From a virus: a stretch of DNA of 6,302 bases. Under the pieces are notes generated by a model. The model made no database searches and was not told the DNA's origin. It was given only the letters and a program-made list of their open reading frames with translations. Shown piece after piece: positions 1 through 6,302 of the stretch (position 1 is its first letter; each line of letters starts with the position of its first letter). The position numbers and the translations under genes are program-made. The stretch lies in the IMG/VR virus record IMGVR_UViG_3300020030_000124, positions 1-6,302 of that record. The stretch is one strand, 5' to 3'.

Positions 1-121
1 AGATACCAAAAGAATCGTTCAACCTCTTGTGCTTGACCTTATCTTGACATTTCGTCAATGCCACAGCGGCCAAACGACGAACAAGAGGAAGAGTATGATA
101 TTCGGGTTCCGCTTTCTTACC
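1..121. repeat. Terminal redundancy, copy 1. Identical to 6182..6302, marking a circular 6181-nt genome.
   Basis: Base-by-base comparison of 1..121 with 6182..6302 shows 121/121 identity in direct orientation. The repeat lies inside the Rep reading frame, as expected for a circular contig linearised with overlap. Confidence 0.97.
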
Positions 122-1693
122 ATAATCAATCCTATTATAACGGAAGGAATAATTACGAAGCTCAAAATCAACCAAGTCCTTATCGTCAGAATCCTCAAGA
201 GTCTGATAAAAATCAACAAGGCGATTGTAGTCATAACGATTCCAAAAGGACACTATTTTTTCCGAGAGAATTCGGAGAGTTCGTTCTCTGCACGCAAAGC
301 AGCCGGCATATCGTTCGGGTTCGGGATAGAAGTTTGCTCCAAGTTCATCATAGTACGTCCGAAAGAATTTAGACATCGAGAGAAAGAATCGATAGCAGCG
401 GGATAAGCGAAAAACCGGGTCCAAATTAACACCGTCATAAAGACGACATTCAGACAAAATGAGAACATCGCTATGCGGTAGATTCTCTTTAGGCGAAAGA
501 ACATTTCGTTCATCATTTGTTTTTCCATAATTGTCTACATAATTTAAATATTGCTTACAAAAAGATAACATACTCTGTTTAGAAAGAGGATTGGGATTAA
601 AAGGATCCAATGCTAAATCACCGCATCCGCTACAAATGACTCGTTCGGGCGCCGTGAATGCAGAATATAATAACTGGTAAACACTCGATGGAAGTTTACG
701 AACAGGGTCCGAAAATCGGGGGAATAATCGAAGGAGATACGGCCACGAAGGCTTAACTGTGCGAAAATATCCATCGCGAACAATGCGGACTCCATTAAGG
801 CAATTATCGGCAACTTCGTCAATTTCGGCAATTCGTACCTTTCGAGGAAAGAGATTTGATTCTGTAAATCCAATGGAATGGAAGGATTTAGGTCGCACCA
901 CTTTTGGCATCTGAGTATAAAAGTCGGGTAAAGCGACAAAACTGTTAACATACGACGCAACATACGGAGCTGCGAATCCTCGCGACAATGACGCATCACA
1001 ACGTCCGTAAGACCAAGCCTTAGATACATTTTCACAAACAGTTTGCGAAAATCTTTCGGAATCGGAAAACAATAACAAATGCCAATGCGGGCGGAAACTG
1101 GTAGGGCCGTATTCTGATACAGCGTAGTAACGTAATTTTTCATCCGGGTAGTAACTTCTTAAACGTTTTAAAAATAAATCTAGATCACGATTACAGATAT
1201 AGGGAATCCTATTCGGAACATCATGCTTAACCTTTCCAAGAATAGACAAAAAATCCTTAGGCTTCATAGGATAAGAAAACTGAACTTCGGGATCCTTAAA
1301 AGTACGCTCAACAGTAGAATTCTTCAACCTAACAGAGGCAGAGCGAGGAACGCTACGAAAACCAAACAGATAAATATTAGTGTCACAAGCATCCAACTCA
1401 TTAATGTCGGGAACACAGGGTACATCCGCAATATCATCCGTACAAGCTTCAATAACTGAAACCTCCAAAGTAGGAAGGAAACAAGGAGCATAAGTAAGAG
1501 TAACAAAATAAACATAACGGAACTGGGCAGAATAAGTAGTGAGGAGGTTTGTCTGAATACCGGAACGACGAAGAATACAAGAAGGACAAGAACCGCAAGA
1601 AACAAGAACGGGTTCATGCGTATATTTATTAACAACCGTACGAGGGTTCTGACAACGAGTCACTAACTTATTCTGCAATTCCTTTGTAATCAT
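1..1693 (-). CDS. VP4: Replication initiation protein (HUH/rolling-circle endonuclease, Microviridae VP4 / phiX174 gpA-like). These are the N-terminal 564 codons. The frame stays open across the window edge and continues at 6181..6165.
   Basis: Hand translation from the ATG at 1693..1691 gives an uninterrupted frame down to base 1. The product starts MITKELQNKLVTRCQNPRTVVNKYTHEPVLVSCGSCPSC. It carries RCR motif I FVTLTY (aa 63-68), HUH motif II HWHLLLF (aa 203-209) and double-Tyr motif III YVASYVN (aa 244-250; compare phiX174 gpA YVAKYVN). It is absent from the ORF track because no stop lies inside the window on this side. Full length is 569 aa after joining with 6165..6181. Confidence 0.93.
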   Translation of the reverse strand, partial: MITKELQNKLVTRCQNPRTVVNKYTHEPVLVSCGSCPSCILRRSGIQTNLLTTYSAQFRYVYFVTLTYAPCFLPTLEVSVIEACTDDIADVPCVPDINELDACDTNIYLFGFRSVPRSASVRLKNSTVERTFKDPEVQFSYPMKPKDFLSILGKVKHDVPNRIPYICNRDLDLFLKRLRSYYPDEKLRYYAVSEYGPTSFRPHWHLLLFSDSERFSQTVCENVSKAWSYGRCDASLSRGFAAPYVASYVNSFVALPDFYTQMPKVVRPKSFHSIGFTESNLFPRKVRIAEIDEVADNCLNGVRIVRDGYFRTVKPSWPYLLRLFPRFSDPVRKLPSSVYQLLYSAFTAPERVICSGCGDLALDPFNPNPLSKQSMLSFCKQYLNYVDNYGKTNDERNVLSPKENLPHSDVLILSECRLYDGVNLDPVFRLSRCYRFFLSMSKFFRTYYDELGANFYPEPERYAGCFACRERTLRILSEKIVSFWNRYDYNRLVDFYQTLEDSDDKDLVDFELRNYSFRYNRIDYGKKAEPEYHTLPLVRRLAAVALTKCQDKVKHKRLNDSFGI

Positions 1694-1998
1694 TTTCTAT
1701 CAGTAAAATTAAGTTTCATCTGGCGAGGTTTGCGACCACGAGCAAAAGAAACATGAACAAATGTGCGATATTTTATAAGCTGATCAAATGCAAAAGAAGA
1801 CTTCTCAATCAACGAAATAAAATCATCTACAGAAAGACCGGAAGGCTTCAAGTCAACAGCATCACCAGTCAAATGCTGCGAATTGGCAGATCCATTACAA
1901 GCATCGTTCTGTTCCCTAGTACGAAAAGCAGAAGTAACAGTGAAATGAACATTCCAACGCAGAAGCCATTCGACGAATTTCATCAACTCTGGATTCAT
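1690..1998 (-). CDS. Minimal zinc D-Ala-D-Ala carboxypeptidase-like cell-wall peptidase (Peptidase_M15_3 / M15A-like), 102 aa. Putative lysin.
   Basis: The ORF-track protein contains TSAFRTREQN (compare family SGYRxxxxN). It also has SQH42-LTGDAV-D49 (SxHxxGxAxD, an H-x6-D zinc-ligand pair) and FVH82V (third ligand, family consensus fvHvD). The ATG is at 1998..1996. The TGA at 1692..1690 overlaps the Rep ATG as ATGA. Confidence 0.8.
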   Translation of the reverse strand: MNPELMKFVEWLLRWNVHFTVTSAFRTREQNDACNGSANSQHLTGDAVDLKPSGLSVDDFISLIEKSSFAFDQLIKYRTFVHVSFARGRKPRQMKLNFTDRK

Positions 1999-2001
1999 GA
2001 C

Positions 2002-2091
2002 TTACGAAAATATTTGAGCAATAGACGTAAGGAGACTAACAGCAGCCGCAATAACTGCAGCCCAGATCTTGGACTTAGTTTCATTTTTCAT
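2002..2091 (-). CDS. 29-aa ORF resembling a Sec signal peptide or single-pass membrane peptide. It is in frame with the downstream M15 peptidase.
   Basis: Hand translation from ATG 2091..2089 gives MKNETKSKIWAAVIAAAVSLLTSIAQIFS, with TAA at 2004..2002. It has a charged n-region, an ~18-residue hydrophobic core and an S-I-A/Q motif fitting the -3/-1 rule. 14 of 28 codons end in T, matching the bias of the confirmed genes. It falls below the size cut-off of the ORF track. Confidence 0.45.
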   Translation of the reverse strand: MKNETKSKIWAAVIAAAVSLLTSIAQIFS

Positions 2092-2254
2092 CGGGAATAG
2101 CTTTAAAAGTTGAACAAGAAGAAACAAGAAGGACACAGTCCGGAGTTATGTAAGAAGAGACAAACTGGGAAATGTCCTCAACAGGTACAAGAACGGTTTC
2201 GTTCTGGTTGGGATTCATCCTTGACTGAATAGAACACAAATAATACTTTTCCAT
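2081..2254 (-). CDS. Hypothetical small protein, 57 aa.
   Basis: An internal ATG at 2254..2252 of the track ORF 2081..2461 gives MEKYYLCSIQSRMNPNQNETVLVPVEDISQFVSSYITPDCVLLVSSCSTFKAIPDEK. 27 of 57 codons end in T, like the confirmed genes. The start lies ~40 nt downstream of the candidate -7 box. The 3' end overlaps the next ORF by 11 nt. No family recognised. Confidence 0.35.
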   Translation of the reverse strand: MEKYYLCSIQSRMNPNQNETVLVPVEDISQFVSSYITPDCVLLVSSCSTFKAIPDEK

Positions 2255-2295: not shown

Positions 2296-2328
2296 CAAAG
2301 ATATAAATAAAATTTTGAGAGAACCAAA
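2296..2328 (-). promoter_or_regulatory. Candidate Bacteroides-type promoter (-33 TTTG, -7 TAnnTTTG) driving the minus-strand gene train.
   Basis: The minus strand reads TTTG (2328..2325), then a 21-nt spacer, then TATCTTTG (2303..2296). It sits in a ~22% GC stretch just upstream of the first small ORF. Motif match only. Confidence 0.35.
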
Positions 2329-2519: not shown

Positions 2520-2582
2520 GGGAGATTGCATACGCGTTGCAGACGTCAAGCTTCAAGGAAGGCAGTACTATAGCCTAACGGC

Positions 2583-2614
2583 TCTGATTTCAGTCCTACG
2601 TCCCGAAATTCAGA
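2583..2614. other. Hairpin with a 9-bp stem, one bulged T and a 13-nt loop.
   Basis: tctga-tttc (2583..2591) pairs with gaaa-t-tcaga (2605..2614). t2609 is bulged. Confidence 0.45.
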
Positions 2615-2656
2615 AGGTGTATAACCACGCTACGCGCGGTTGCCGGAAGTTACTCC

Positions 2657-2693
2657 AAACAGCAAAACCCGACGCGCATCACTGCGAGCCGGG
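2657..2693 (-). terminator. Intrinsic-terminator-like hairpin plus T-tract, downstream of VP2.
   Basis: The minus strand reads CCCGGCTCGC-AGTGAT-GCGCGTCGGG (2693..2668). That is 9 pairs including one G-U, plus one mismatch. It is followed by TTTTGCTGTTT (2667..2657) and starts 24 nt after the VP2 TAG stop. Confidence 0.5.
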
Positions 2694-2716
2694 TAAACAC
2701 ACAACAAACAAAAGTA

Positions 2717-3784
2717 CTACCAGGGCAGAAAGTTACCTACAGTATTACCGATAGAGGTGCCATAATGAACAGCCTTATCAGCGTCATAATACTTATGCCT
2801 TTTCTTCTCATTTCTGGAACGATACCATTCTTCAATATTCTTACTGCGAGCATTATCACGGGAAAGACCAAGCTTAAATTCCTCATCATAATAAGCCGCA
2901 GAAGACTGACTAGCGGCAATATTAGCCGCAATTTGAGACTCAGCAATACGAGAAGCAACATGATTTGAAATATGCTGTCCACGAGCACGGGCAGCAGCCA
3001 AGGCTTCCTCTGCGATAGCTTTTTTAGCTTCAGCATACGAAAGATAACCAGCCGACATACGCTGATAGTAATCCGCAGCCTTAACATTCAGATCAAGCTG
3101 CTGCTGCTGGTCAAGATATTTATTCATAATACCTTTAGCTTCATTATCAAGAAGCATACCAGAGTGCTGAGCCTTCATAACATTGCCAGTCATTGCCATG
3201 TTATTCACTTCCTGCTGCTCCCTTGCATAACCAAGCTGGGCACGAGCCAAACCAGTAGATTTCAAATAACTACGGGTTTCATCAGTAAGTTTTCCCCAAT
3301 CAATATTAGAAAGAACTTCCATAGCCTTAGCATCAGCAAGCTGCTTAGCGCCTTGCAAATTAGACTTTTGAGACTGCATAAGCTCGTACTGAAAAATGTT
3401 ACCGATAGAACTTGATATACCGGAGTAATCAGCCTGGAAAGGCTGCATGACAGCAGGACCGGCAGACTGGGCAGAAGAACCAGGACCGGCAGACTGGGCA
3501 ATACCGGCGGAACCGCCGTTCATCATCAAATAAGGATTCAAACCAGCTTCTTCAAGACGTTGACGTTGCGCGGATGCAGTATTATATGCATTTTCCTTAT
3601 TCCACATATTTTCCTGAAAATCGCGCTGCTGCATTGCCATACGCTCGTTGAACTGGTTATTCATCTGATTTATCTTATAGTTCATCTGGTTGGTCTCCCG
3701 GACATTCTGTCTATTCTGTGAATTCTGAATTGCAGAAGTACCAATGCCAAAAAGACCACCAGCGATTGAACCAAGAAGACCCAT
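2717..3784 (-). CDS. VP2: Minor capsid / DNA pilot protein (Microviridae VP2-like), 355 aa.
   Basis: The N-terminus is glycine-rich and hydrophobic (MGLLGSIAGGLFGIGTSAIQ). Q/N-rich coiled-coil-like regions follow (NQMNYKINQMNNQFNERMAMQQRDFQENMW...RQRLEEAGLNPYLMM). Position and size are typical of Bacteroidota-type microvirus VP2. The ATG at 3784 shares one base with the upstream stop (TAATG). Confidence 0.82.
   Translation of the reverse strand: MGLLGSIAGGLFGIGTSAIQNSQNRQNVRETNQMNYKINQMNNQFNERMAMQQRDFQENMWNKENAYNTASAQRQRLEEAGLNPYLMMNGGSAGIAQSAGPGSSAQSAGPAVMQPFQADYSGISSSIGNIFQYELMQSQKSNLQGAKQLADAKAMEVLSNIDWGKLTDETRSYLKSTGLARAQLGYAREQQEVNNMAMTGNVMKAQHSGMLLDNEAKGIMNKYLDQQQQLDLNVKAADYYQRMSAGYLSYAEAKKAIAEEALAAARARGQHISNHVASRIAESQIAANIAASQSSAAYYDEEFKLGLSRDNARSKNIEEWYRSRNEKKRHKYYDADKAVHYGTSIGNTVGNFLPW
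3454..3500. repeat. In-frame tandem duplication inside VP2: a perfect 20-nt repeat at 27-nt period.
   Basis: caggaccggcagactgggca occurs at 3454..3473 and again at 3481..3500. This encodes AQSAGP-GSS-AQSAGP in the Gly/Ser/Ala linker of VP2. Confidence 0.9.
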
Positions 3785-4266
3785 TATTCAGAGGAAGCGA
3801 CATCGGCGGAAGCAGCAGCCGCCTTTTCTGCCTCTTGTTTAGCAGTTTCAGCATCAATCAATTCCTGTGCCTGGGACTCAAGATTTTCAGCATAAGCAGA
3901 CAACTCCTTAGACCAGGCAATAATCTCAGAAGGAGTCTGGACATGCCGAGAGCGAACCGTCGCCAAAAGGTCATCGTCAGACATGCCGTCCATAATCTGC
4001 TGAATCTGGGAAGCAGACTGTTTACTCTGTCCAAACTTGGAAGCAACAGCAAGACCGGCACGGGAAGCCAAGTCCTTGGTATGAAGAAGCAAACGGATAT
4101 CAGAAGTATAACGCACCGGACAAGATTCTTCATTATCGTAAATTTCAACACGAAGCTGTTCGGTAGAATCAAATTCGGGAGCAACTGCAAAAGCATCCGG
4201 AGAAACATCGGGAACAAGACCGGAACCTTGTTCCAGACTGTTCAAACAATTAAATTTTCCAATCAT
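3784..4266 (-). CDS. Hypothetical protein, 160 aa from the ATG (162 aa if the TTG at 4272 is used). Possible internal scaffolding (VP3-like) protein.
   Basis: The ORF sits tightly between VP1 (8 to 14 nt gap) and VP2 (1-nt overlap). Its C-terminal tail is acidic and Ala-rich (ELIDAETAKQEAEKAAAASADVASSE). The track start at 4272 is a TTG; the first ATG is at 4266..4264. The functional call rests on position and size only. Confidence 0.6.
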   Translation of the reverse strand: MIGKFNCLNSLEQGSGLVPDVSPDAFAVAPEFDSTEQLRVEIYDNEESCPVRYTSDIRLLLHTKDLASRAGLAVASKFGQSKQSASQIQQIMDGMSDDDLLATVRSRHVQTPSEIIAWSKELSAYAENLESQAQELIDAETAKQEAEKAAAASADVASSE

Positions 4267-4280
4267 AATCAAAACAATAT

Positions 4281-6137
4281 TTAATAGGGAACACCATCAC
4301 GAGACAAATTTCGGGCAACATAGCAACCGATATAAGAGTTGACCAGCAACTGGTCAGTATCCCAAGTAGAATCAGCCTTGACACCAAAAATAGGATCAAG
4401 AACAGAAGGGTTAACCTTAAAGAACTTATAATTCAAAGCAACCTTAGTATTAGAATCGGGGGTAGAACCGCCGAATTGTGCCCAACCGGAAATTAAAGAC
4501 TCAGAAACCGGAGAAACCCAAGATTTCAAAGTAGTGGTAAACGCTCCATTAATGACATCAAGCTTAGTCTTCCAGTTGAAATAACGAGGATTATAACCTG
4601 CATTAAACAAATTAAAAGCAGTAGCAAGTGCAGAATTGAAAATCTGTGTCATAGGAAGGACTTCCATACCGATATTATCGAATTCCGGAATCGGGAGAGA
4701 CTCAGCATCAGTAACAAGCAGCTGACCATCCTGTCCGGTAATAGTATAGTCAAGCAAAGGAACGGCATGATAAATACACATAACGACACAATGTTCATCA
4801 GTAGTATAAGAGAAAGAACCGTTTCCTGCGCCGACACCTTTACCGGCAATAACGGCAGTATCACCTTCACCAGCAAGGTTATTGTTCACAACCTCACTGA
4901 TATCAAGGTTACGGGAGATACCACCGATATAAGTACACATATTGGAAAGAGCCTGGGGCAAGTTCACGCCAAAGTGCTTGCGGATCTGTTCACGATAGTC
5001 GGAATCGCCGGACTGAGAAATTTCTTTCCAACGTTGAAGGGCTTCGGCCTGGCGAAGGGCAAGAACCGAAAATTGGGACTGCAAAGCAGACAAATCAGAA
5101 ACCAAAGGAGACTTGATACCAATAGCAGAACCGGAAGGAATATTAAGAGTAGTCAAACTAGTAGAGCTGTTATTAGTAGCCAAGAGAGTATTCGAAACCG
5201 CAGAAATGAATTTACCGTCAGTAGTTCTAAAACCGGCCTTCAAATCGCCACCGGGCGGATCAAGATTGACTACAGCAACATCTCCAAACTGAGAATTCGG
5301 GAGAACGCCCATAAGCATATCCTTGTTCCAGTTACAGTACTTGAGGTCAAACATTGTGTCAGATTTCCAATAATCATCAGACTCCGAAGGAATAGAATCA
5401 AAAGGGATGAAAGCGGGAGAAACACCAGAAAAATAATCAACATTATAAGAAGCAGGATTAGCATTTTCCCATTGAGACCAACGGAAAAAATCCTGGTAAA
5501 TCTTCTGATAGGCAAGAATCGGAAAAACGTTTACATAATTATTCTGAATATACTGCTGAGAAAAACTTGATGAATCATCACTATTCTTTAAAGAAGTAGA
5601 CCACCAACGACTACCAGGAGTAGGAACAGAAGACACAAAGTTTCCATAACCAAGATAAGACAAAAGTTTAAAAGACAAATCTCCTCTGAAAAAACCAAAC
5701 AAATTTTTTGAACCAGAAGAATTTCCAGGATTCGGAGAAGTTCCATTAAGCCGATAAGGGAAATAGAATAAAGAAGATAAAGGCAAAGACGGAAGATAAG
5801 TACCCAAAGACAAATTCTGAGTCAAAGACAACGCTTGAATCTGATTGATATCCTGCATCTGAGTCAACACGGAAGGAGCGGACTTCCAGAGAAGACGCAA
5901 CGGCACAGCATAGAAGTCAAAGTACTCACGCAAACGGGTATAAGCAGAAGTTTCAACAGGCTGAGTACGGGTAAAATACTCAACATTGAACTTGTACTTA
6001 TCACCAGGCATAGAAATATCCCAGTAAACGGGGAGAAGCTCACCAATTTTCGCAGTAAACGCATTTTTACGTCCAATATCAAATCCAGAACGGTGAGGGC
6101 GGTTCTGAAGATTGGACATTCCGGTGTAAGAAGCCAT
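4281..6137 (-). CDS. VP1: Major capsid protein (Microviridae VP1 / phiX174 F-like jelly-roll), 618 aa.
   Basis: The N-terminus reads MASYTGMSNLQNRPHRSGFDIGRKNAFTAKIGELLPVYWDISMPGDKYKFNVEYFTRTQPVETSAYTRLREYFDFYAVPLRLLWK. This is the characteristic microvirus capsid start (conserved G-L-P...P-D...R-T-P...R...FFVP-R-LW pattern). The ~620 aa length fits the Alpavirinae-type capsid with large insertion loops. Confidence 0.96.
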   Translation of the reverse strand: MASYTGMSNLQNRPHRSGFDIGRKNAFTAKIGELLPVYWDISMPGDKYKFNVEYFTRTQPVETSAYTRLREYFDFYAVPLRLLWKSAPSVLTQMQDINQIQALSLTQNLSLGTYLPSLPLSSLFYFPYRLNGTSPNPGNSSGSKNLFGFFRGDLSFKLLSYLGYGNFVSSVPTPGSRWWSTSLKNSDDSSSFSQQYIQNNYVNVFPILAYQKIYQDFFRWSQWENANPASYNVDYFSGVSPAFIPFDSIPSESDDYWKSDTMFDLKYCNWNKDMLMGVLPNSQFGDVAVVNLDPPGGDLKAGFRTTDGKFISAVSNTLLATNNSSTSLTTLNIPSGSAIGIKSPLVSDLSALQSQFSVLALRQAEALQRWKEISQSGDSDYREQIRKHFGVNLPQALSNMCTYIGGISRNLDISEVVNNNLAGEGDTAVIAGKGVGAGNGSFSYTTDEHCVVMCIYHAVPLLDYTITGQDGQLLVTDAESLPIPEFDNIGMEVLPMTQIFNSALATAFNLFNAGYNPRYFNWKTKLDVINGAFTTTLKSWVSPVSESLISGWAQFGGSTPDSNTKVALNYKFFKVNPSVLDPIFGVKADSTWDTDQLLVNSYIGCYVARNLSRDGVPY

Positions 6138-6164: not shown

Positions 6165-6302
6165 TCAATCCCGGTAAGAAAAGATACCAAAAGAATCGTT
6201 CAACCTCTTGTGCTTGACCTTATCTTGACATTTCGTCAATGCCACAGCGGCCAAACGACGAACAAGAGGAAGAGTATGATATTCGGGTTCCGCTTTCTTA
6301 CC
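6165..6302 (-). CDS. VP4: 3' end of the replication initiator gene. It duplicates 1..121 and adds the last 5 codons plus the stop.
   Basis: Continuing the 1..1693 frame across the junction gives ...NDSFGI-FSYRD-TGA, with the stop at 6167..6165. Bases 6182..6302 are the redundant copy of 1..121. Confidence 0.9.
   Translation of the reverse strand, partial: GKKAEPEYHTLPLVRRLAAVALTKCQDKVKHKRLNDSFGIFSYRD
6182..6302. repeat. Terminal redundancy, copy 2. Identical to 1..121.
   Basis: 121/121 identity with 1..121 in direct orientation. Confidence 0.97.

Follow-up and report, generated by a model that had tools for sequence, protein, structure and literature searches.

In phiX174, lysis is the work of protein E, a non-enzymatic inhibitor of MraY whose gene is overprinted inside gene D. 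The locus described here lies in a virus of the same family and encodes a small apparent cell wall peptidase, which raises the question of whether this protein is a working lysis enzyme and what might help it to reach its substrate. The window (the whole 6302 nt stretch of viral DNA that was analysed) carries a 121-nt terminal redundancy and so represents a complete microvirus genome, circular and 6181 nt in true length. The genes all lie on the minus strand and encode the MCP (Phage_F), scaffold, pilot, peptidase and a 569-aa Rep. The circular join splits Rep, whose last five codons and stop fall at 6181..6165 in the circular reconstruction. With its circle of approximately 6 kb and genes for a Phage_F capsid protein, pilot, scaffold and Rep, the virus belongs to the Microviridae, within an Alpavirinae-like gut clade. 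It shares 81–83% nucleotide identity with the complete genomes of Dulem virus 236 and 257 and bajarodmic virus 410 and 1134. Neither Rfam nor tRNA scanning gave a significant hit in the window. The features of interest are collected in table 1.

Table 1. Features of the peptidase locus and its surroundings, in window coordinates.
Feature	Position	Strand	Basis
Bacteroidota-type promoter-like motif, TTTG-N21-TAtcTTTG	2296..2328	-	consensus match, 41 nt upstream of ORF57
ORF57, small acidic conserved protein	2081..2254	-	57-aa hypothetical protein in GenBank relatives
TM29, unannotated 29-aa single-pass membrane peptide (MKNETKSKIWAAVIAAAVSLLTSIAQIFS), candidate holin-like partner	2002..2091	-	conservation, position
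102-aa minimal M15_3 zinc peptidase (M15A/Hedgehog-DD-peptidase fold), putative endolysin	1690..1998	-	Pfam, PHROG, AF2, Foldseek
ATGA overlap of peptidase stop and Rep start	1690..1693	-	direct reading; 67/68 clade genomes
Rep (replication initiator), 569 aa	1..1693	-	Pfam REP_ORF2-G2P E 1.4e-12; PHROG 942 E 9.7e-36

An earlier note on this DNA had read the 102-aa protein as an M15/LAS-type zinc peptidase, and profile searches bear this out. Pfam PF08291 (Peptidase_M15_3) gave a significant hit of 50 bits against a gathering threshold of 23.2 (E 3.7e-13), with residues 6–84 of the peptidase on profile positions 30–108 of 108, and PHROG 894 (‘endolysin’) matched at E 2.6e-18. In NCBIfam nothing rose above threshold, the sole match being MepK at E 0.099. 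The AF2 model of the protein was predicted with high confidence (pLDDT 97.1, pTM 0.88). Structural comparison with the PDB using Foldseek yielded 1lbu as the best hit, followed by Hedgehog N-domains, LysB4, VanY, LdcB, LysECD7 and Ply500; the top matches had probabilities of 0.9–1.0, and the best were all LAS/Peptidase_MD enzymes. The first of these, the zinc D-Ala-D-Ala carboxypeptidase of Streptomyces albus G (MEROPS M15A), is the best solved-structure match by both profile (E 3.1e-12, with H42 on H154 and D49 on D161) and fold (Foldseek E 5e-4, rmsd 2.7 Å over 78 columns), although it is a protein of 213 aa with an additional N-terminal domain and only 23% identity to the peptidase. The M15C L-alanyl-D-glutamate peptidases (T5 endolysin 2mxz/8p3a, ChiX 5opz, Ply500 and LysECD7), single-domain proteins of 125–137 aa, have the LAS zinc site in common with it, but match at the level of the fold, plus weak sequence matches over residues 2–53 (E 0.3–0.7), and belong to a different (VanY-like) subfamily with an Asp/Glu-x-x-His third motif.

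The description of the protein as minimal also holds. Relatives carry a median extension of approximately 36 aa before the position of its Met1, and only 19 of 134 representatives have none; a longer N-terminus is excluded here, since an in-frame TAA sits two codons upstream of the ATG. A protein search with the peptidase as query returned 1697 clusters, and tblastn found 145 phage records, including numerous microviruses in which the gene is annotated ‘peptidase’; matches in BFVD include the peptidases of Microvirus mar50, mar52, mar54 and mar59. Close relatives, whether prophage or donor, were sought in 185 579 species-representative genomes, with no confirmed match.

These numbers leave little of the suggestion that an M15 peptidase is a rarity in the Microviridae. 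As early as 2012, Roux et al. (PMC3394797) described 11 M15_3 peptidases from Gokushovirinae and Alpavirinae and suggested that they act as endolysins; of the neighbouring sequence they say no more than that five of the 11 genes adjoin an ‘unknown’ ORF. Papers after 2012 treat the M15_3 peptidase as a recurrent accessory lysis gene, and it is documented as such in gut and marine microviruses. The present protein is of the same Pfam family, in the same virus family and with the same proposed role, and differs in nothing essential. The ‘peptidase’ CDSs of the Dulem and bajarodmic relatives likewise specify 102 aa, overlap Rep by 4 nt and stand in the order ORF57, peptidase, Rep, as here. The microviral M15_3 peptidase as such is thus already known, and the original finding adds nothing new. 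The fresh point at this locus is a highly conserved, unannotated gene directly before the peptidase, TM29, to which we return below.

Whether the peptidase is likely to be active was judged from its predicted zinc site and the residues around it. The residues singled out in the earlier note (R26, N31, H42-x6-D49, H82 and S84, in the local sequence TFVHVSFARG) were correctly numbered. H42-x6-D49 is invariant in the 134 representatives and in 115 close relatives, and an alignment of 104 sequences shows N31, S40, H42, D49 and H82 to be invariant. The predicted zinc ligands H42, D49 and H82 are conserved, as are S23, R26, N31, S40, D72, Q73 and R92. The Hedgehog N-domains (Shh, Ihh and Dhh) share the fold and offer a useful comparison: their FDWVYYEs.nHvHvS aligns with FDQLIKY.RTFVHVS of the peptidase, and the zinc ligands of Shh are H141, D148 and H183, the last being the second His of HVHVS/HIHCS and aligning with H82. 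Hedgehog itself acts in animal signalling and possesses calcium sites; the likeness extends to fold and motif, not to function.

It had been proposed that Ser84, two residues past the last zinc ligand, is atypical and questions catalytic competence. This concern does not survive comparison with relatives: Ser is present in 115 of 115 close relatives and in 106 of the nearest 134 representative clusters, where Gly occurs in 18 and Asp in only two, and it aligns with the Ser of HVHVS/HIHCS that stands at the same distance from the last ligand in Hedgehog N-domains. Ser84 is thus the norm of this branch rather than a defect. Against the broad Pfam model, S84D changes the score by +1.3 bits and S84A by −0.1 bits, shifts small enough to show that the position is weakly weighted in the model.

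Doubt about activity moves instead to two other positions. The Glu general base of Shh (E177) has Tyr77 as its counterpart, invariant in the clade, and the first His of H-x-H (Shh H181) is replaced by Phe80. Among the 134 representatives, position 77 is Glu in 66 and Tyr in 56 and covaries with Trp or Phe at position 80, which is Trp in 63, Phe in 51 and His in 10; departure from H-x-H is, across these representatives, a property of the whole subfamily and not of this peptidase alone. The Y/F/S combination at positions 77, 80 and 84 is present in 35 of the 134 clusters. With Tyr77 and Phe80 at the sites of Shh E177 and the first His, the catalytic mechanism is not readable from the sequence. 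On alignment, then, the real peculiarities of this peptidase are Tyr77, Phe80 and the missing N-terminal extension of approximately 36 aa, and one might take these same three features as marks of a catalytically dead remnant that binds peptidoglycan or has a regulatory role. We regard this as improbable, given that the three zinc ligands and S23, R26, N31, S40, D72 and Q73 vary little or not at all, that the Y/F variant is a large and widespread branch, that the Pfam model itself prefers Tyr at position 77 (Y77E costs 1.1 bits) and that Ser is the usual residue at position 84 in this branch. Variable columns by codon position number 61/42/90 in a comparison of approximately 32 relatives, which indicates purifying selection on the peptidase, and a 6-kb genome is unlikely to retain a dead gene under such selection in hundreds of lineages.

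The homologues in tailed phages suggest what an active enzyme would do. Endolysins of the M15A/phrog_894 type (Salva gp29 and those of Burkholderia and Bacteroides phages) are 35–40% identical to the peptidase and have the motifs S-x-H-x2-G-x-A-x-D and FDQLI...H-[IV]-S in common with it. They differ in their length of 125–150 aa and in possessing an N-terminal extension (F..E...S....N.P), which this peptidase lacks, and many have Glu/Trp in place of Tyr77/Phe80. The homologue in Stenotrophomonas phage Salva (38% identity) is annotated as an endolysin endopeptidase and adjoins holins and i-/o-spanins, and the Bacteroides phage homologues also carry endolysin annotation. PHROG 894, the Salva lysis cassette and the 2012 proposal together point, through homology and gene context, to a probable endolysin role. 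M15A-type domains are also found in virion proteins of tailed phages, and the BFVD matches include Gp5 OB-fold/baseplate-hub tail lysozyme proteins and cell wall hydrolases of at least approximately 1000 aa, so the peptidase might instead act in or on the virion as an entry enzyme, opening peptidoglycan locally during DNA delivery. This carries about as little weight with us as the dead remnant: the neighbours of the gene encode a membrane peptide and Rep and not structural proteins, the protein has no capsid-attachment domain and its close tailed-phage homologues are located in lysis cassettes. We also know of no microvirus that packages a lysin. We consider it probable that the protein is a working zinc peptidase, pared down in size, with the M15_3/M15A fold and with peptidoglycan as its substrate, and that it is most likely the endolysin of this Alpavirinae-like phage. 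The clade demonstrates that an M15A-fold peptidase can shrink to approximately 100 residues and still be under strong selection, which may interest engineers of small lysins against Bacteroides.

The genes on either side of the peptidase abut or overlap it. On the downstream side its TGA (1692..1690) overlaps the ATG of Rep (1693..1691) as ATGA, an overlap that the earlier note had read correctly and that recurs in all but one of the clade genomes. The note went on to see in it the coupled expression of a lysin with an early replication gene, and here we differ. The scaffold/pilot junction of the same genome is TAATG, and in the sister clade the peptidase/Rep junction is TAATTATG, without overlap. 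The sister junction shows that overlap itself is not essential, and the absence of ATGA there, taken with TAATG elsewhere in this genome, argues for ordinary microvirus packing. Stop/start overlaps are routine in microviruses and, as far as we know from phiX174, these viruses lack early and late gene classes.

On the upstream side lies TM29, a strongly conserved gene missed by gene callers and GenBank records; the 29-aa ORF is not annotated in the records of the Dulem and bajarodmic relatives. Of 68 genomes of the clade, at least 65 carry it, and its variable columns by codon position (9/4/19) show it to be coding. A second frame across it (frame B, MKLSPRSGLQLLRLLL..., with a stop overlapping the peptidase ATG) gave 20/10/5 and was rejected. 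TM29 homologues of 27–28 aa occupy the equivalent position in two diverged lineages, so that a peptide of this type adjoins a minimal peptidase in three lineages. When a 44-aa ORF was used as query for TM29 homologues, only 21 clusters were returned, all from the same clade and none named.

The peptidase lacks a signal sequence and would therefore need help in reaching the cell wall. TM29, encoded immediately upstream, has a hydrophobic 20-residue core (17-residue Kyte–Doolittle maximum 2.18), and 3 nt separate its stop from the ATG of the peptidase; a transmembrane segment encoded beside an endolysin gene is the arrangement expected of a holin. Among candidates for a holin-like partner, which would breach the inner membrane for the peptidase, TM29 is the strongest. 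TM29 is very short and without a charged C-terminal tail, and would to our knowledge be smaller than any known holin. It had no significant match to described holin families (best PHROG 443, holin, E 0.083) and no match in Pfam or NCBIfam.

The proximity of the two genes admits a further reading, in which TM29 and the peptidase are one read-through protein and TM29 is the signal-anchor of a SAR-type endolysin. They do share a frame, separated by TAA and one codon, the spacer is 3 nt in most clade genomes, and the 31 upstream codons nearly equal in length the 36-aa extension that full-length relatives carry. Across relatives, however, spacers of 3, 9, 15, 16, 21 and 32 nt occur, and the shared frame is lost with those of 16 and 32 nt, which are found in L012, L067 and L047; longer spacers hold tandem TCGTAA stops, the stop itself varies between TAA and TAG, and sister lineages are out of frame, the two ORFs there either overlapping by 4 nt or standing 10 nt apart. 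Reassignment of the genetic code is not involved, since the other genes have no in-frame stops. Fusion is thereby largely refuted and we give it hardly any credence.

A somewhat better case can be made for TM29 as a single-gene lysis effector in its own right, comparable to the N-terminal membrane domain of phiX174 E, with the peptidase only speeding the breakdown of the wall. The lytic function of E resides in its short N-terminal transmembrane segment. Within the block, conservation is highest in TM29 (92% nucleotide identity versus 79% for the flanking genes), and relatives that lack the peptidase carry other small membrane or lipoprotein-like genes. TM29 nevertheless resembles neither E nor any other known single-gene lysis protein, and in the loci covered here TM29-type peptides occurred only beside a minimal peptidase, a weak point given that the sampling was anchored on the peptidase. 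We judge an independent effector unlikely.

As to expression, the promoter-like motif is the single match in the window, where 0.35 would be expected by chance, and it recurs in 37 of 45 related genomes, again at approximately 42 nt from ORF57 on the upstream side and usually as the sole match per genome. A sigma-70 scan gave no more matches than in shuffled sequence, with a model that is not applicable to Bacteroidota. The Bacteroides fragilis microvirus phiHBP1 encodes a related peptidase with an FIHVS motif; together with the conserved TTTG/TAnnTTTG motif, this makes a member of Bacteroidota the most likely host of this Alpavirinae-like gut microvirus. The chained block of ORF57, TM29, peptidase and Rep would be transcribed from this candidate Bacteroidota-type promoter. 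Its abutting and overlapping stops and starts would represent ordinary compaction and may let ribosomes pass from gene to gene, a passage that would hold Rep, the last gene, at a low level.

Returning to TM29 as a partner of the peptidase, we put forward tentatively, as a reading that may well prove wrong, that in ssDNA microviruses infecting Bacteroidota the peptidase and a membrane peptide of 27–29 aa form a holin–endolysin-type cassette, which would share a transcript with Rep and depend on a promoter of the host type. phiHBP1 counts against the partnership, having a full-length peptidase and no membrane peptide adjacent to it. If TM29 does breach the membrane, these abundant gut phages would lyse their hosts by a small-scale version of the two-component scheme of tailed phages, and such a cassette would stand apart from phiX174, where lysis is non-enzymatic and needs a single gene: the putative lysis function is here divided between a separate enzyme gene and a separate membrane-peptide gene, with no sequence similarity to E.

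The first gene of the block, ORF57, has a stop that overlaps the TM29 start (ATGAAAAATGA) and a codon-position variability of 39/27/48. Related ORFs are present in L037 and beside the peptidase of phiHBP1.

Reading of the sequence reproduced the peptidase gene exactly as the earlier note had described it, in position, length, residue numbering (R26, N31, H42, D49, H82 and S84) and ATGA junction with Rep, and the N-terminus is fixed by an in-frame TAA two codons upstream. The protein matched Pfam Peptidase_M15_3 with 50 bits (cut-off 23.2; E 3.7e-13) and PHROG 894 'endolysin' at E 2.6e-18. A profile of 104 relatives matched the Streptomyces zinc DD-peptidase 1lbu (E 3.1e-12) and the Hedgehog N-domains (E about 2e-3), and pairwise alignment equated H42 and D49 with H154 and D161 of 1lbu. 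The structure was modelled from the 104-relative alignment using AlphaFold2 (pLDDT 97.1, pTM 0.88); Foldseek ranked 1lbu first for this model, then Hedgehogs, LysB4, VanY, LdcB, LysECD7 and Ply500, while matches in the viral library included several entries named 'Peptidase [Microvirus mar..]'. With Pfam, profile and fold comparisons all returning M15/LAS matches, both the sequence and the predicted fold place the protein among the M15/LAS enzymes, as had been proposed.

The suggestion that such a gene is rare in microviruses did not hold. A protein search with a cut-off of E <= 1e-3 yielded 1697 clusters; the top 120 were all at least 79% identical to the peptidase, 115 of them exactly 102 aa long, and many lay on contigs of about 6.2 kb. 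Homologues were found by tblastn in 145 GenBank phage records, dozens of them microviruses. Roux et al. (PMC3394797) argued for horizontal acquisition of microviral M15_3 peptidases and proposed an endolysin role, and most marine Occultatumvirinae also have such a peptidase. By megablast, the window matches complete microvirus genomes in GenBank that derive from lemur and rodent faeces (Dulem virus 236, Dulem virus 257, bajarodmic virus 410 and bajarodmic virus 1134), at 81-83% identity over 80-91% of the genome, and each of the four carries a 309-nt 'peptidase' CDS with a 4-nt overlap with the Rep CDS. The kind of gene was already known, and its clade had already been sequenced and annotated.

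Ser84 had been called atypical against a family consensus of fvHvD. Among 115 close relatives of 102 aa, H42 and D49 are invariant, position 82 is His in 114 and position 84 is Ser in all; of 134 representatives (clusters at 50% identity), 106 carry Ser at position 84, 18 carry Gly and 2 carry Asp. The subfamily shares the motif FDQLI-x-[EY]-x(2-3)-[WF]-[IV]-H-[IV]-S. In the profile alignment, Desert and Sonic Hedgehog (FDWVYYEsRNHVHVS and FDWVYYEsKAHIHCS; Shh zinc ligands H141, D148 and H183) likewise have Ser two residues past the last zinc ligand. The fvHvD motif fits Pfam's broad model, and that weakly: the Pfam score rises by 1.3 bits with S84D and falls by 0.1 bits with S84A. Kept in the relatives and in Hedgehog alike, Ser84 is the conserved, normal state of the branch and no argument against catalytic competence.

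Two further positions distinguish the enzyme. Position 77, aligned with the Shh general base E177, is Tyr and invariant in the clade, and position 80, aligned with the first His in the H-x-H motif of DD-peptidases, is Phe. At positions 77/80/84, 56 of the 134 representatives form an E/W/S branch and 35 a Y/F/S branch; with smaller classes included, position 77 is Glu in 66 and Tyr in 56. The Pfam model favours Tyr here, Y77E costing 1.1 bits. Since many relatives share the Y/F pattern, including phage phiHBP1, it is best read as a widespread, selected variant rather than decay. Given Tyr77 and Phe80, sequence does not name the general base, for which the nearly invariant D72 and Q73 are candidates. 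N-terminal to the place of Met1 in the window protein, relatives carry a median of 36 residues (consensus F..E...S....N.P....NL), and only 19 of the 134 representatives lack an N-terminal extension. Every form of ~100 aa that was traced is microviral.

Positions 1..121 of the window recur exactly, as a direct repeat of 121 nt, at 6182..6302. This repeat is an assembly redundancy: the genome is circular and 6181 nt long, with all genes on the - strand.

Features of the circular genome, listed 5' to 3' along the - strand
Feature	Coordinates	Strand	Remarks
Major capsid protein	6137..4281	-	Pfam Phage_F, PHROG 514
Scaffold	4272..3784	-	
DNA pilot protein	3784..2717	-	PHROG pilot families
Region without convincing genes	between pilot gene and ORF57		~460 nt
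ORF57	2254..2081	-	small acidic protein
TM29	2091..2002	-	29 codons; membrane peptide
Peptidase	1998..1690	-	
Rep	1693..1, across circular join to 6165	-	569 aa

The overlap of peptidase and Rep is real, and the ATGA junction is present in 67 of 68 genomes of this clade; the meaning attached to it, a lysin coupled to an early gene, was not borne out. In a sister clade from human gut (peptidase 54% identical), six of seven genomes read have TAATTATG without overlap, the two genes overlapping in the seventh (L043), and similarly tight junctions occur elsewhere in the window genome: TAATG between scaffold and pilot, ORF57 running 11 nt into TM29, and 3 nt separating TM29 from the peptidase. Such overlaps are routine in phiX174 (ATGA for genes A/C, TAATG for D/J), and microviruses are not known to have an early/late transcription programme. 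The overlap is ordinary compaction and poses no paradox. Coupled translation is plausible, and could hold Rep low as the last gene of the chain.

ORF57 (MEKYYLCSIQS...) yielded no match in a family search but is kept in relatives, with related ORFs in L037, a diverged virus whose peptidase is 45% identical, and directly upstream of the phiHBP1 peptidase. The Bacteroides promoter consensus, according to Bayley, Rocha and Smith (2000), is reportedly TTTG at -33 and TAnnTTTG at -7. Its sole match in the window, TTTG-N21-TAtcTTTG (2328..2296, coding strand), is found 41 nt ahead of ORF57. By chance ~0.35 matches would be expected in the whole window, and one or more occurred in 63 of 200 shuffled sequences. 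In 37 of 45 related genomes the motif lies at a similar distance upstream of ORF57 (~42 nt) and is usually the genome's single match; the sequence between its two elements varies. This conserved placement supports a Bacteroidota host, a transcription start ahead of ORF57, and probable co-transcription of ORF57, TM29, peptidase and Rep. Relatives of the major capsid protein all came from mammalian gut samples, one being the B. fragilis phage phiHBP1; no close relatives of the peptidase were found in species-representative bacterial genomes.

TM29, MKNETKSKIWAAVIAAAVSLLTSIAQIFS, encoded immediately in front of the peptidase, combines a charged N-terminus with a hydrophobic helix of ~20 residues, many of them small. 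It is encoded in at least 65 of the 68 clade genomes. Its mean pairwise nucleotide identity is 92%, that of ORF57 and the peptidase 79%, and its variability at third-codon positions is about half that of the neighbouring genes. Variable columns by codon position (9/4/19) indicate that the frame is coding; an overlapping alternative frame gave 20/10/5 and was rejected. A read-through fusion with the peptidase can be ruled out, since some spacers break the frame and some carry tandem stops. Homologous or analogous peptides sit at the same place in two diverged lineages, L037 (MKVETKSGWISAVVSAIIAALTALLQNL) and the P0125 clade (MNKNNIWKIIIGAVSAALGYVLNAIGL), in the latter with a stop overlapping the peptidase start. 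TM29 is not annotated in the four GenBank relatives and is a 'hypothetical protein' in a few JGI records; a family search gave no significant match, PHROG 443 holin at E 0.083 not being evidence. In four related genomes (L007, L012, L017 and L018) the TM29/peptidase spacer is extended by tandem TCGTAA (last sense codon plus stop), giving spacers of 9, 16 and 21 nt with repeated stop codons.

Helix 3-14 of the modelled fold takes up the N-terminus of the peptidase, which therefore lacks a signal sequence. With a host that is likely Gram-negative, a membrane-breaching partner would be needed, for which TM29 is the obvious candidate. As to the function of the peptidase subfamily, a homologue in Stenotrophomonas phage Salva (38% identical), annotated 'endolysin endopeptidase', immediately adjoins two holins and an i-/o-spanin pair, and Burkholderia and Bacteroides phage homologues are labelled endolysin, in all cases by annotation and not by assay. 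Tentatively, the conserved 27-29-aa membrane peptide and the trimmed peptidase might make up a holin-endolysin cassette in miniature in ssDNA phages that infect Bacteroidota, a reading we consider possible but somewhat short of probable.

Lysis strategies appear varied in the group. The Bacteroides fragilis isolate phiHBP1 (L038, PV598014.1) encodes a full-length 134-aa M15_3 peptidase as a 'hypothetical protein' CDS (84..488, -), with the motifs SQHLLGCAAD ... FDQLIYY..FIHVS and thus the Y...F-I-H-V-S pattern of the window peptidase; there the gene lies downstream of Rep, and the locus has no adjacent membrane-peptide ORF. The relatives Dulem virus 245 (L083) and 256 (L084) have no annotated peptidase and none among the small ORFs between pilot and Rep. 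They encode a 65-66-aa protein (4175..4372 and 6160..6360, respectively) with a signal peptide, a lipobox-like VQ[AS]C and a Ser/Thr/Asn-rich tail, which may be an alternative lysis lipoprotein.

Just past the pilot stop, at ~2658..2694 (-), a GC-rich hairpin, CCCGGCTCGCAGTGATGCGCGTCGGG, with TTTTGCTGTTT after it looks like a terminator; the stretch 2560..2720 has a fold z of -2.9 as single-stranded DNA. Together with the single promoter motif, this terminator-like hairpin suggests one genome-long transcription unit. Within the same region, 50 non-coding nt (2616..2665) are 96% identical by megablast to an unannotated stretch of Dulem virus 262, a microvirus otherwise unrelated to the window genome, and may represent a conserved cis-acting element, for instance the replication origin.
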